64,000 bases of DNA from positions 1,240,001-1,304,000 of the forward strand of contig CP089279.1 of NCBI GenBank assembly GCA_023920165.1, read 5' to 3'. Below, one piece after another: positions 26,799 to 45,230 of the stretch. The DNA comes from Curvularia clavata. Lineage: Eukaryota. The position numbers and the translations under genes were made by a program. How positions within the stretch are numbered: position 1 is the first letter of the stretch; the number at the start of each line of letters is the position of its first letter. The notes beneath the pieces were generated by a model that searched no databases, was not told where the DNA came from, and saw only the letters and a list, made by a program, of their open reading frames with translations.

Positions 26799-29700
26799 TC
26801 AAGCGCTACTACTGTTGCTACTCAACCACAGTATGTACTCCTCGACAGCACGAAGAAGTGCTTCTACTTTTGACTTGTGACACACGCTCTGTGGAACCGT
26901 TAGCTCCAGGCGATAGCTATAACCCAGCTCAGGCCAGACGTTTAGTCTCGGTGGTTCCGCAGGCTCCAATGCGCCTGGTACATCGAGCACTTCAAGCCGG
27001 ACTCCCTGCTCGCCAAACCTGCTGACAAAATCTCGCGCAACGCTTTGAAAATAAATGACTGATCCAAACTCTGTTCCACCAGGCCATGATGTACAGTTTG
27101 TCGCAATTTCCTGGAGACCAATTGTTTCGTGAGGAATACTGTTGTTAAATTGTTCCTGCAACCCATGCATGATTTCGTGGCGCGGACTCGCGTGTACGTT
27201 TGCAGCTCGGACAGGTACAATGTTCAGACATGGCCCAACAACATTTACGGCGTCTAGCTCATGACTTCCACCATTGCGCCCCGAGACTGCTCGACCAAAA
27301 ACAACCTCATTGGAGCCCGTTACATGGCAAAGTGCCGAAGCCCATGCCGCGCTGAAAACAGTGGCAGCGGTGACACCTTTTGGGACTTGTGGCAACCTCA
27401 CTATTGTGGTGAGGTGGATACGCGGGCCAGGTATCAAATCAATCTTTCGACTGTCGACGGACAGTAAAGTGGGCGCCGGTGCGTCTTTCAGGAGGGTGCG
27501 CCAGTAATCATAACTCGAAGAATGTGTCTGGCATGCCCTCATTATGTACGAAGAGAATGAACACAATGGTGGTAATTGGCGGTGAGAATAGAGCGCCGCT
27601 AGTACGTTGACTGTATGATGAAGACTAAAGGCGTCGTATTGGGCATGCGAGATGCGAAGCATCAAGCCTGTCTGTGCTTCTTTAGCACTCTGTATGATGA
27701 AGAACTTAGCCAAAGTCGTGTTTGGACCTAGTCGCTCCTGTCCATCGGTACGGGCAATTGTCTTGCACAAATCTTCAAGAGGTTGTGCACCCTTCGTGAT
27801 CTGAACATTAGCTGTAGAGTGCTTCAGCACAAGTTGAGCATAACCATCCTGAGCCTTCACAAAATGTGTCCGGAGAATTTCAAGCGCATCAACAGCATGT
27901 TGACATGCACGCTGCAGTCTCTCGATGTTTACTGGCCGATGAAATCGTATCCAGAAGTAGTTGACTTCGGTACGAGGAGTGTGCAAAGCAGCCCTGACAG
28001 CGTAGTCTTGAAACTCTGTGAGCCTGAGTATCTGATAAATGTTCTTGTTGTCGAATGATTGGTCAATGTCGGCAAATCTCTTTGCATTGTTATCTCGCTG
28101 ACCATTCTTGAGCCCATGGAGCCCGTTCGTATGCGGGGGCGCGAACGCATCAACACGCCCATTGAGTGGTGACGAACTGTTGTCTTCTAGGCCAAGCGCT
28201 CTGGCCATGTCCTCCAAGCGACTGTGTTGGAATATCATGGCCACCGACAGTGGTAGGTGTAGCTTCCGCGCGGCACTGACTAGGCGAATAGCTGACAATG
28301 AGTCTCCTCCTAGCTCCAGGAAGCGGTCATCTCGCCCAATCAATCTGGCATCTATATCCAGAACTTGTGACCATGCTTCTCGAAGTTTAGCCTCGGCTTC
28401 AGTGAGTGGTTCGAGAACAGGCCTCATGGTTCGCTTTTGTTTTTCATCCAATAGTTCTCGAGCACCATGGGCTTTCAGCTTCTTCCGGTCGACCTTACCA
28501 GTCGCAGTCAATGGAAGCTTGGCCATAACAACGAACGAAGAAGGCACCATGTATGCAGGAAGAATTCGCGGGAGCGAAATGGCCAGAGTGCGTGCCGCTT
28601 CGTTCGTCGACTCGAGATTAGATTTGTCTTTGGTTGATGGTGACAAGAACATAGCCAGCACCTGAGTCTTGTCGTCTGGCTCGACAACATCAGCAACAAC
28701 GATGATTTCATCACCGATTTCTCGGCGAGCATGAGCTTCGACCTCGCCGAGTTCAATGCGCTGGCCTCGAAGCTTGACTTGCAGGTCTTTGCGACCGACG
28801 TATATGAGTTCTCCACAGCTGCTGTATCTTACTAGATCACCAGTTCTGTATAGATTACGTTTCGGGTCATCAACATGCCCAGTCAATGTGTCGACAAAAG
28901 ATGCTCTTGTGCTGACCGAGTTGTTCAGATAGCCCCTCCCTACCAGAGGTCCTTCCACCACAAGTTCCCCAACACCGCCAAGAGGTGCGAGCTCTCCTGG
29001 CTGTAGACAGCTTACAACCCAAGCATTAAGCCCATAGGCACGTCCGATATTAGGCTGCATGTTTCGGTTCCTGCCATATATTGCGATTGTTGATGTAATT
29101 GTGCATTCCGTAGGGCCATAGCCGTCACGAATATCGATATCAGAGCCCCATCGTGTTATGTCTTCCAGCGCGAGTGGTTCTCCTCCAAATACCACCGTTC
29201 GAATGCTGGGTACCTGGGTGGGGTCGATCGTTCGTGCTAGAGATGGAGTCAGGTGCAGGTAGTTCACGTCGAATTGCTGGATCGCCCCGATAAGGTCATT
29301 GCGCCGCTGGTCATCTGAAGGAATGCAAAGGCATGCTCCAGTACTAAATGTAAACAAAAACTCGTGCCAGACAATGTCAAAACTGTACGAGGATAGGTCC
29401 AAGGTTCGCGTGGTGCGAAGTGTTCCATATGCCTCGGTCTGGTGCTTCAAGGCACTGCAACAGTTGGAGTGGGTGATGATTGCGCCTTTAGGAGCCCCAG
29501 TGCTTCCAGAAGTAAAGCTGATATAGCAGGCATCGTCGGGTGAGGATTCTGGCAGTGAAGAATTGAAGCGAACATTTTGGAGATTCTTGACAAAGTGCTC
29601 AGCAAGAACAACAACATTGGGGATTAACCGAGCTGCAATCTCTTGGGTGCAGGGGGACGCAATGATGAACGTTGCATTCGTTTGTTTCACAATACCCTGG

Positions 29701-42800: not shown

Positions 42801-45230
42801 ATGTCAGACTCAGTTCAGCCGCTCGCATACGATGTCCACGAGGCCTGGGCAACGCCTCACCTCAAGAAAGTCATCAACACATGGTCCAGTGTAAATTCTA
42901 TCATCAAATCTGGTTCAGTATCTGTGGACGGTGAGTCTTTGGATGTTGCAACAGTGGTAGCCGCGTCAAGGTATTTCCAGTCACAATCGTAATCAACATT
43001 CAGCAACTGACATATCAGGTATGGAGCAAAGCTATCCATTAAGGAGGACCCAAAGACATTGTCCCGACTTGGTGACAGCGTCAAGGTCCTCCACGACTAC
43101 CTTGACAAAGGTTATTATCTCTATGGCGTCAACACCGGATTCGGTGCAAGCGCAGATACTCGCACAAAGGACCTCTTGGGTCTCCAGAGAGGTCTCATGC
43201 AACTCGTTCAAAGCGCTATACTCACACCCGAAGACAAGACTGATGGAGCATCGCACAACGAATATCTTGGGTCGCACAGCATGCCCAGTGCTTGGGTCAG
43301 AGCAACAATGCTCATTCGTCTCAATGCAAACATTCGGGGGCATTCGGGCATCAACACAAACACCTTGACAACAATTACGCAGCTATTGGAGCATGACATT
43401 GTCCCTGTTATTCCTCTCCGTGGCTCTCTCTCTGCTTCAGGAGATCTCATGCCACTTGCCTATATTGCAGGCGCTATCCAGGGCAACCCAGATATTTATG
43501 TCCGTGTTGGAGGCGCTACAGGATCGCCCGTGGTTATGACAGCGGAGCGGGCGCTACGGGAAGCTAAAATCGAACCCATTGTACTGGGACCTAAGGAAGG
43601 CCTTAGCTTGATCAATGGAAGTGCCGCTGCGACGGCGGTAGCAACTCTGGGGCTTTACGAAGCCCATCAACTAGCTGTTGCTTCGCAAGCACTTACTGCT
43701 CTGGGTTCTGAAGCCTTGCATGGCAACGCTGAATGGGCGCATCCGTTCATCGCGGCCGTCAGACCACATCAGGGCCAGATTGAGGCAGCCCAGAACATTC
43801 GCACTTTTCTGCGTGGTTCTCGGCTCGTTGTTGGACTGGAACAATCAAAAGACCGATTCAAATCTGGTATGGCACAAGAGCGCTATGCCTGGAGGAGCGT
43901 GCCGCAATGGCTTGCTCCCCACCTAGAGGATCTTGTACTCTCGGATTCTCAGCTCACCGTAGAACTGAATTCTACATCGGATAACCCAGTTATTAACGTC
44001 GAAGATAAGGACGTGCATTGTGGCGCCAACTTTCAAGCCGCGTCAGTGACTGCAGCCACCGAAAAGGTTCGCCTCTCGCTGCAGTCAATTGGAAAAATGC
44101 TTTTCAGTCAGGTTAGCGAAATGATCAACCATGATCTTAGCAACGGTCTTCCTCCCAATCTTGCTGCCGACGATCCAAGCGTGTCCTTTTGTCTTAAAGG
44201 CCTCGATTGCAACACTGCAGCTTACACATCCGAACTCGGGTTTCTTGCTAACCCAGTAAGCAACCACGTCCAATCTGCCGAGATGCACAATCAGTCCATC
44301 AATTCCTTGGGTTTGCTTTCTGCACGACAGACATTTGCCGCCATTGAATGTCTCTCTATGATCGTTGCCAACGCTCTCTACACAGCTTGCCAGGTATGTA
44401 TACACCTTACAAGCCATATTTCGGAGCGAACGCTGACTCTACCTCTGCAGGGCGTGGATATTCGGACACTACATCGTACCTTCCTCAACAAACTCAGAAA
44501 GCCAGTTGAGGAACTGCTTGCTTCGTCCTTCCAAATTGAAGACGCGAAGCTTATTTCCAGGTTCTGGACTCGTTTCGAAGAGACCTGGTACAAAGGGGCC
44601 CCGCTTGATGCTGAAGAACGGGCTGATAAAGTCTCTGATGTCCTCTCGGCAGTTATCGTCACCAGCTCCGAGGCTAGCAGTGACATCAACGTAACACAAT
44701 TATCAAAGACACGAAAAGCCCTCAGAGACCTAGTTCTCAACACCTATGTCCAGCATCGTGAGGCCTTCTTCAAGAACCCAAGCACCCTGGAATACCTTGG
44801 CAACGGCACCAAGGTTCTCTACCGCTTCGTCCGTGAGAAGTTACAGGTCCCACTTCACCGAGGATTGATCGAACACCCAGTTGCTGGCGCAAAAGACAAC
44901 AACATGATTGATGGAAGACCCAAGAAGACTATTGGCTCCTGGGTTTCCATCATCTACGAGGCTGTTCGCAATGGAGAGTTGTACAGCGAGATTTTAGAAT
45001 TCCTTCAAGATGAAGACAGCAGCAACCGTGTACACAGAAATGGAAACGGTAAGTACACGAACGGTAATGGCGTACATTCCAATGGCAATGGTGTACATTC
45101 CAATGGCAATGGTGTACATTACAATGGCAATGGTGTTCATGTGCACGGCAATGGTGTCAACAGCAACGGTAATGGTGTTAACAGCAACGGTAATGGTGTT
45201 AACAGCAATGGCAACGGGGTTCACACATAA
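42801..45230 (+). CDS. MIO-dependent aromatic amino acid lyase/aminomutase (PAL-like)
   Basis: YGVNTGFG, RGHSG, MIO-forming SASGDL, KEGLSLING, ELNSTSDNP, GANFQ and AEMHNQSINSLGL motifs; introns 42971-43018 and 44394-44450 (the latter is 57 nt, in frame, and read through in the ORF track). Confidence 0.94.
45039..45227 (+). repeat. Coding tandem repeat, 9 x 21 bp (NGNGVH/NS heptapeptides) at the PAL C-terminus
   Basis: Translation NGNGKYT NGNGVHS NGNGVHS NGNGVHY NGNGVHV HGNGVNS NGNGVNS NGNGVNS NGNGVHT ends at the stop codon. Confidence 0.93.

Follow-up and report, generated by a model that had tools for sequence, protein, structure and literature searches.

Fungal clusters in which a nonribosomal peptide synthetase (NRPS) is accompanied by a precursor-forming enzyme, exporters and a regulator are of a familiar general kind, and several described systems come close to one part or another of the locus considered here. 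TqaA and AspA are reportedly the anthranilate-tripeptide synthetases for fumiquinazoline F and asperlicin, with a terminal condensation-like (CT) domain that cyclises the tripeptide, and AspA is said to use one adenylation (A) domain twice, placing two aromatic beta-type amino acids (anthranilate) before the third residue. The cyclochlorotine and astin clusters reportedly contain five-module NRPSs with halogenation and other tailoring, and they are also said to encode an enzyme resembling phenylalanine ammonia-lyase or phenylalanine aminomutase (PAL/PAM). The products of both are fungal NRPS peptides with beta-phenylalanine (beta-Phe), and R-beta-phenylalanine is named as a constituent of astin C (PMC12836360). 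The clusters for HC-toxin (TOX2) and apicidin combine four-module NRPSs with an exporter of the major facilitator superfamily (MFS), fatty acid synthase subunits, aminotransferases and a regulator that is basic at its N-terminus and carries four ankyrin repeats at its C-terminus (PMC4109984). The locus described here occupies positions 26799-45230 of a 64,000-nucleotide stretch of the Curvularia clavata genome (contig CP089279.1, positions 1,240,001 to 1,304,000 of the forward strand; hereafter the window, meaning that whole stretch), and although its general kind is well represented, the NRPS/PAL family to which it belongs appears to be uncharacterised.

The cluster consists of five genes: an NRPS (minus strand), a first MFS gene (MFS1, plus), a gene for a basic-region/ankyrin-repeat protein (minus), a second MFS gene (MFS2, minus) and a PAL-like gene for an enzyme of the 4-methylideneimidazole-5-one (MIO) type (plus). 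A preliminary description of the window, made from the letters alone, had placed this gene content where it was found, and the strands of the gene models bear out its arrangement in two divergent pairs, NRPS with MFS1 and MFS2 with the PAL-like gene, the ankyrin gene sitting between them. Short GT..AG introns and a G+C content of about 50% mark the DNA as fungal. We read the locus as a transcribed secondary-metabolite cluster of a conserved family uniting a dedicated MIO enzyme with an NRPS some 3000 aa long, in which the NRPS would build two aromatic units and a third residue (Ar-Ar-X) and release them by CT cyclisation, an aminomutase being favoured as the source of the aromatic unit; taken as a whole, this reading seems to us about evenly poised between right and wrong. 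Its features are as follows.

26799..35882, minus strand: NRPS gene, 3027 aa, intron-less (open reading frame, translation, Pfam, tblastn to the Neocucurbitaria homologue)
34119..35156, minus strand: A1 adenylation core (Pfam AMP-binding, E=9e-49)
31572..31937, minus strand: A-domain remnant, C-terminal subdomain only, 5' of T2 (BLASTP to the A1 and A2 subdomains)
31383..31568, minus strand: T2 carrier domain (GGDSL), without a working A domain of its own (Pfam PP-binding, E=8.5e-10)
28494..29948, minus strand: A2 adenylation domain (Pfam AMP-binding, E=1e-56, and AMP-binding_C)
26802..27956, minus strand: terminal condensation-like (CT) domain, motif SHAQYDA (Pfam Condensation, E=4e-26; TqaA match)
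35883..36578, no strand: NRPS/MFS1 divergent promoter region (gene models)
36579..38046, plus strand: MFS1, 470 aa, one intron at 37097-37151 (spliced RNA contigs, in-frame model, weak MFS_1)
38107..38960, minus strand: basic-region/ankyrin-repeat protein of about 260 aa, bANK-like (three ankyrin stretches; inferred intron)
39782..41342, minus strand: MFS2, 485 aa, introns at 40258-40310 and 40747-40796 (spliced contigs, Pfam MFS_1)
41343..42800, no strand: MFS2/PAL-like divergent intergenic region, 1458 bp (gene models)
42801..45230, plus strand: MIO (PAL-like) enzyme gene, 774 aa, introns at 42971-43018 and 44394-44450 (Pfam Lyase_aromatic, RNA joints)
45060..45214, plus strand: 21-base tandem repeat coding the PAL-like tail (Tandem Repeats Finder, translation)

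The gene positions first proposed were broadly right, but the NRPS starts at 35882 rather than 35933, and to the PAL-like gene must be added an exon lying upstream, from 42801, and two in-frame introns. Oxidative tailoring genes, which the preliminary description had reported missing, were likewise not found in a Pfam scan of the cluster's open reading frames (ORFs) and of nine ORFs on the right flank: the other cluster ORFs of at least 100 aa have no Pfam family above cut-off, and the MFS2/PAL-like intergenic region holds no ORF with one.

Set beside the described systems, the locus shows a patchwork of likenesses. Its terminal domain is nearest to the solved TqaA CT domain, but, unlike in AspA, the second unit has carrier (T) and condensation (C) domains of its own together with an A-domain remnant, in place of module reuse, and, unlike in TqaA and AspA, A1 keeps Asp235 and an MIO enzyme stands where those systems have an anthranilate supply. 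The halogenation and other tailoring of the cyclochlorotine and astin clusters are absent, and no Talaromyces or Cyanodermella protein occurs among the 120 best PAL-like matches. With HC-toxin and apicidin the locus has in common an NRPS, a putative MFS exporter and a probable regulator that is basic at one end and ankyrin-bearing at the other, but the ankyrin protein has three repeats within about 260 aa, and the Tox-box and Api-box are absent from the biosynthetic promoters.

The pairing of the NRPS with the PAL-like gene recurs in other fungi. The PAL-like search scored 8000 sequences and gave 2575 matches at E<=0.001, of which 120 were listed; 32 of these 120 are at least 60% identical, and the others are at most 56%. 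Among the 120 matches listed for the NRPS, one is 64% identical over 99% of the query, eighteen are proteins of 2500-3270 aa with 39-44% identity over 74-99%, and the rest are larger synthetases covering about half of it. The 64% NRPS and the best full-length PAL-like match (68%) among those listed are Nn.00g017910 and Nn.00g017870 on one contig of Neocucurbitaria sp. VM-36, with three genes between them, a spacing that is the same as in the window. Further pairs were found as follows.

Aspergillus pseudonomiae: PAL-like XP_031935085, NRPS XP_031935088
Aspergillus bombycis: PAL-like ABOM_008876, NRPS ABOM_008880
Aspergillus tubingensis: PAL-like ABZX51_008369, NRPS ABZX51_008373
Beauveria bassiana ARSEF 2860: PAL-like XP_008600869, NRPS XP_008600867
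Beauveria brongniartii: PAL-like OAA44075, NRPS OAA44073
Penicillium cf. griseofulvum: PAL-like KAJ5433824, NRPS KAJ5433827
Aureobasidium pullulans EXF-150: PAL-like KEQ86793, NRPS KEQ86796

With Beauveria neobassiana and B. namnaoensis, whose PAL-like and NRPS tags are 3-9 apart, the two genes are neighbours in 10 species of 5 genera, separated by 2-9 steps of locus tag or accession number. The five genera span three classes (Eurotiomycetes, Sordariomycetes and Dothideomycetes). The window resembles these pairs in the length of its NRPS (39-64% identity over 74-99% of the query among the matches listed), in the conserved A1 code, the dead A-domain remnant and the terminal [S/P]HxxYD motif, and in a PAL-like partner that is 64-69% identical and 2-9 tags away; in Beauveria species the counterpart NRPS carries the label 'NRPS 11'. 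It differs in that the A2 code varies between species and in a Cys at the Ile460-equivalent position of the MIO enzyme, present in only this one of 115 aligned rows. No assigned product was found for the other-species pairs. A search of metagenome contigs kept 80 loci related to PAL, all at 41% identity or less and most at 27-38% (likely bacterial lyases), with no close relative among them.

In a FastTree phylogeny of 51 PAL-like rows, thinned from 91 by dropping fragments shorter than 640 aa and many near-duplicate Aspergillus-type PALs, all six rows known to neighbour an NRPS fall in a single 18-row clade (support 100, stem 0.35), neighbour status being known for those 6 of its 18 rows. The clade stands apart both from PALs of the Aspergillus type and from a group, mostly with Xylariales names, to which BisK belongs. 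The preliminary description had expected the genes to travel and to be expressed together, and the NRPS and PAL-like neighbours of 10 species, along with contig cover of four of the five genes in one oligo-dT library, agree with that expectation.

The architecture of the NRPS is distinctive. A single open frame of 9.1 kb runs over 26799-35933 on the minus strand, with its first Met at 35882, from where the closest homologue also aligns; tblastn against that Neocucurbitaria homologue (P0123) gave one segment of 63.5% identity over residues 15-3016. Pfam detects two AMP-binding, three Condensation and three PP-binding domains, and the order read from the sequence is partial C, A1, T1, C1, A-remnant, T2, C2, A2, T3 and CT. 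In residues of the open frame, which was scanned in eight pieces (subtract 17 for the protein from Met-35882), A1 spans 260-605, T1 789-852, C1 900-1317, T2 1456-1517, C2 1561-1976, A2 1996-2480 and T3 2516-2580, with the terminal C domain from 2660. The motifs of a modular NRPS are present, namely HHAAYDE in C1, HHAIYDK in C2 and GDSL in all three T domains. At the N-terminus, a C-domain fragment (residues 52-88, E=0.027) covers profile positions 241-277 only and does not include the HHxxxD region.

Between C1 and T2, Pfam finds no AMP-binding match. The 136 residues preceding T2 nevertheless align to the C-terminal subdomain of A1 (31% over 123 aa, E=2e-14 by BLASTP) and more weakly to that of A2 (E=3e-7). 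At the A10 motif the lysine is replaced by Glu in this remnant (SGEKDP, vs SGKIDR in A1 and TGKVDR in A2), and a Lys occupies the position in only one of 22 aligned NRPS relatives. Because the remnant is nearer to A1 than to A2 and lacks an AMP-binding match, module 2 is best described, on these alignments, as a copy of module 1 that has lost its adenylation core, a loss that the preliminary description had not remarked on. The synthetase thus has two working A domains for three carrier domains; T2 would have to be loaded by another A domain, and the likely product is three residues drawn from two substrates. For the terminal domain, the preliminary description had proposed a cyclising type from its SHAQYD motif, and this assignment gains from comparison with solved structures: TqaA is the best match (E=4e-32, the next being 1e-10), whereas for the control domains C1 and C2 the best matches are bacterial elongation C domains, TqaA scoring only 1e-8 to 1e-13. 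An SHxxxD motif is typical of CT domains, and with SHAQYDA in place the domain is a fungal cyclising CT domain of the TqaA type.

Specificity codes for both A domains were read from motif anchors. A1 reads DACSVTAIMK and A2 reads DIHSVGGITK, each with the amino-binding Asp, and Asp235 is present in A1 and A2 of every complete family row. This residue marks substrates bearing an amino group, that is, amino acids rather than acids, and since A1 keeps it, anthranilate is an unlikely A1 substrate. The A1 pattern DA[C/F/Y]S.T.I.K recurs in all 22 complete family rows (position 239 being C in 13, F in 6 and Y in 3) and is close to two bacterial codes, DAWTIAAICK for Phe and DASTVAAVCK for Tyr, so that the A1 pocket, conserved across the family, looks aromatic. 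The A2 codes are variable, with more than 15 different ones in 23 family rows.

A hint of co-variation, weak in itself, comes from the Penicillium griseofulvum/coprophilum pair, in which a Leu-Thr-Ile pocket of the MIO enzyme accompanies Tyr at A1 position 239; in five lineages with a His-Thr-Val pocket the residue there is Cys, and the window (Leu-Val-Cys with Cys) falls outside any simple rule. The six NRPS relatives with Phe at position 239 are P0135, P0140, P0153, P0164, P0174 and P0200, four of which are named, as Verticillium, Purpureocillium, Metarhizium and one Penicillium. Penicillium is represented among the 120 best PAL-like matches, and Verticillium, Purpureocillium and Metarhizium are not; the Phe-239 relatives may form a PAL-less branch of the family.

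The PAL-like protein matches Pfam Lyase_aromatic (PF00221) at E=1e-135. Its best solved matches (E=1e-124) are 1Y2M and 1T6J, the phenylalanine/tyrosine ammonia-lyase (PAL/TAL) of Rhodosporidium toruloides; next come the Taxus aminomutase and PALs of plants. Aligned to 1Y2M, it retains what defines an MIO enzyme, with the ASG triad, the loop Tyr and the equivalents of Tyr351, Arg354 and Asn260 intact and those of Phe400, Lys456 and Glu484/Asn487/Gln488 also present (active-site columns Y, ASG, N, Y, R, F, K, E, N, Q). It departs from 1Y2M in its selectivity pair, which is Leu-Val instead of His-Gln, in an Asn/Gly-rich repeat tail and in its setting within a secondary-metabolite cluster. The His137 position of the solved PAL/TAL is the His89 position of bacterial TAL. 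Residues 137 and 138 set the choice between Phe and Tyr, according to PMC9002059. We infer from the Leu-Val pair, with its hydrophobic residue at the His137 position, that the window enzyme is Phe-selective. Among 25 rows at least 60% identical in which the site is covered (the window counted), the position is His in 16 and Leu in 9, the window included, and the His found in most relatives suggests Tyr as their substrate.

The repeat tail consists of about eight NGNGV(H/N)S units encoded by the 21-base tandem array at 45060-45214, and the Neocucurbitaria PAL-like protein also ends in a Gly/Asn-rich stretch. The model of that protein (P0003, 694 aa) lacks about 50 conserved residues, including Glu484/Asn487/Gln488, that the window (44240-44420) and other relatives possess, and the shortening looks like a gene-model error.

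Transcription was assessed with contigs from four public runs aligned to 26300-45600; one run is recorded as oligo-dT RNA, and the other three are guessed to be RNA or of unknown kind. Five of the six introns were seen in these contigs as GT..AG joints.

37097-37151, MFS1: runs X13 and X16
40258-40310, MFS2: runs X14 and X15
40747-40796, MFS2: run X14
42971-43018, PAL-like gene: runs X13 and X15
44394-44450, PAL-like gene: runs X14 and X15

With these introns the gene models are in frame, giving 3027 aa for the NRPS, 470 aa for MFS1, 485 aa for MFS2 and 774 aa for the PAL-like protein. Run X13, the oligo-dT library, contains contig pieces of the NRPS, MFS1, MFS2 and PAL-like genes, all at 99% identity or more, which is a co-occurrence of transcripts and not co-regulation, as contigs give no expression levels. 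The contigs do not cover the intron of the ankyrin gene or most of the NRPS, an absence of cover that proves nothing. The record of run X13 is labelled as a tick metagenome (metatranscriptome), and 14 of its contigs matched 26300-45600. DNA runs under several coded organism labels contain 0.34-1.00 of the sampled words.

Taken together, these features suggest a short pathway. The MIO enzyme would make the aromatic unit from L-Phe and, if it is a 2,3-aminomutase, would yield a beta-aryl-beta-alanine, beta-Phe here and beta-tyrosine (beta-Tyr) in the His-type relatives. As the conserved partner it would pair with A1, the conserved A domain, which would load the same aromatic amino acid on both T1 and T2, while A2, whose pocket differs between species, would load T3. 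C1 and C2 would then build Ar-Ar-X, and the CT domain would release the tripeptide by intramolecular cyclisation; the two MFS proteins may export the product or import a precursor, and the basic/ankyrin protein probably regulates the pathway. Such loading is what has been proposed for modules with a degenerate A domain in SidD/NPS6, which are siderophore synthetases, and AspA likewise makes repeated use of its first module. An aminomutase is favoured over a lyase because both A domains have Asp235 and no CoA ligase was found in the cluster, the lyase product being without an amino group. A broader proposal, possible but on balance doubtful, is that the whole NRPS-linked PAL clade consists of fungal aromatic 2,3-aminomutases of Phe and Tyr type, that A1 loads the resulting beta-aryl-beta-alanine on two carriers, and that undescribed CT-cyclised (beta-Ar)2-X peptides, with X depending on the species, occur across three fungal classes.

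Several points weigh against this interpretation. The loading of T2 by A1 is an inference by analogy, and the likeness of A1 to Phe and Tyr domains is to bacterial codes, fungal codes being poor predictors. No marker that we could find in the sequence separates a mutase from a lyase: the NRPS-linked clade differs consistently from other ascomycete PALs at only 4 columns, none of them a known lyase/mutase determinant, the hydrophobic flanks of the inner loop (GY[Y/F]LY, DL[Y/L/F]G) are common to the sister clade with BisK, and the closest solved structure is that of a true lyase. Adjacency in other species is read from consecutive tags or accessions and not from coordinates, the one sign that the MFS and ankyrin genes are conserved is the gene spacing in Neocucurbitaria, the contigs cannot show expression levels, and the intron of the ankyrin gene is without RNA support. 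Flexibility of the loop decides between mutase and lyase activity, according to PMC9002059.

The proposed aminomutase has its main competitor in an ordinary ammonia-lyase, from which cinnamate, or coumarate in the relatives, would enter as an acyl unit through A1 or through an enzyme encoded elsewhere. The hancockiamide pathway offers a precedent, in that a PAL of the cluster is said to feed cinnamate to an NRPS-type enzyme. With true PALs as the closest solved relatives and so few consistent active-site differences from other ascomycete PALs, this route deserves serious consideration, and the partial C domain at the N-terminus might have been left over from an acyl starter; that fragment is, however, short and poorly scoring and is without HHxxxD, Asp235 stands in both A domains of all complete family rows, and neither a CoA ligase nor a third A domain was found in the cluster, for which reasons we regard the lyase route as somewhat unlikely. 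Less probable still is a bystander role, with the PAL-like gene coding for a catabolic or housekeeping PAL that happens to be next to the NRPS and contributes nothing to the product. It has all the catalytic residues of an ordinary PAL, but PAL-like genes neighbour the NRPS in 10 species belonging to 5 genera, the six NRPS-linked rows examined all belong to a single clade distinct from PALs of the Aspergillus type, and transcripts of the PAL-like, MFS2, MFS1 and NRPS genes occur in one RNA library, which together make a bystander very improbable.

The beginning of the NRPS, A-T-C followed by a degenerate A-T-C, also recalls a siderophore synthetase of the SidD/NPS6 type, since a degenerate A domain before the second T-C pair is a hallmark of SidD/NPS6 and SidC. 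That resemblance does not extend further: a third full module and a TqaA-like CT domain (C-A-T-CT) follow, which is not the SidD/NPS6 organisation, the A1 code looks aromatic, and the Pfam families found in the window include no ornithine monooxygenase, acyltransferase or siderophore transporter, leaving a siderophore role scarcely credible. It might be, finally, that the family already has a published or database product assignment and so belongs to a known biosynthetic gene cluster. Earlier work on it would be plausible, given its presence in the well-studied Beauveria bassiana, Aspergillus tubingensis and Penicillium griseofulvum, but among the matches listed no homologue at least 39% identical bears a curated gene name, the names being generic or similarity-derived ('NRPS 11', 'dtxS1'), and a search of literature outside most subscription journals gave no such cluster and no characterised counterpart of an NRPS with a PAL. 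A prior assignment is accordingly rather improbable, and the preliminary description, which had recognised no characterised cluster here, holds up within that scope. Nothing found here supports its suggestion of a phytotoxin. Named relatives come from Beauveria, Metarhizium, Aspergillus, Penicillium and Aureobasidium, with nothing that points to plants; their ecology is that of insect pathogens, moulds and a yeast-like fungus.

What had appeared to be a single odd cluster now belongs to a family with a clear core, an NRPS and a dedicated MIO enzyme. Members occur in Beauveria bassiana, Aureobasidium pullulans, Aspergillus tubingensis and Penicillium griseofulvum, all easily handled, which opens several hosts in parallel to a search for the product. 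If the enzyme is a mutase, the family would provide beta-aryl amino acids from a new fungal source, along with a new peptide scaffold, and if it is a lyase, it would show how an NRPS with A domains that look amino-specific uses an aryl acrylate. In either case, the family supplies natural specificity variants, with His or Leu at the MIO selectivity site, C, F or Y at A1 position 239 and many A2 codes.

The remaining three genes of the cluster are less sharply defined. The ankyrin protein has three Pfam Ank stretches at residues 149-236 of its 240-aa second exon, and its first exon codes the sequence MQTTITLSSDDERKKRNRISKRRS, with a basic run SSDDERKKRNRISKRRS, also given as DDERKKRNRISKRRS, that is followed by a Gln-rich stretch. 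The inferred intron (GTAGGT donor, TACTAAT branch site) is 38823-38887, or 38814-38887 with the next AG nine bases on, and the N-x7-R signature of the basic region survives only with the second AG (38815-38814) as acceptor. No bZIP Pfam match was obtained at E up to 10. A near-length search found two close unnamed relatives (64-69% identity) on short assembled contigs, while an exhaustive search returned 269,387 matches led by giant ankyrin proteins, and a protein atlas gave generic ankyrin clusters only. According to PMC4109984, factors of the bANK class (TOXE, Aps2, Apf2) have a bZIP-type basic region at the N-terminus, no zipper and four ankyrin repeats, one more than was detected here, and different regulators of the class bind different boxes.

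The Tox-box ATCTCNCGNA has 3 matches in the window vs 1.8 expected, none in any cluster promoter. The Api-box TGACGTGA is not found in the biosynthetic promoters, and Api-box-like sequences show no enrichment (5 window matches vs 8.4 expected), a single one, TGACGAGA, lying upstream of the ankyrin gene at 39193-39200 on the minus strand. The three promoter regions have no 8-, 9- or 10-mer in common. Because the boxes differ between bANK regulators, the missing Tox-box and Api-box are weak evidence. The protein is bANK-like and probably a pathway regulator. Of the bANK assignment in the preliminary description, the basic N-terminus and the ankyrin repeats stand; membership of the TOXE/APS2 family is unsupported, with three repeats detected, no bZIP match and neither box in the biosynthetic promoters. 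Of the transporters, MFS1 scores 25.7 bits against Pfam MFS_1, below the cut-off of 33.4, and its protein-atlas features lie at 0.98 to ascomycete MFS clusters, while MFS2 is above cut-off on two exons (E=4e-17 and 9e-14).

A transposase ORF borders the cluster on the left, and DNA in which no gene could be recognised as far as 50657 borders it on the right. The left-hand feature is as follows.

24674..26347, minus strand: pogo/Tc5-type DDE transposase ORF, left border, outside the pathway (Pfam DDE_1, HTH_Tnp_Tc5, HTH_psq)

This ORF is full-length (557 aa), ends the cluster on that side and lies 452 bp from the NRPS stop codon. Beyond it, an ORF for a Zn2Cys6 transcription factor (607 aa, 22611-24434, minus strand) is either a second regulator or unrelated. 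On the right, 45231-50656 is a 5.4 kb stretch of lower G+C content (0.45-0.46) with short ORFs only; the nine of those listed that were tried (90-203 aa) have no Pfam family above cut-off. Farther right follow a 1062-aa TPR protein (50657-53845, minus strand), an ORF with a PigL_N domain (54491-55138, plus strand) and a third MFS gene at 58088-59605.

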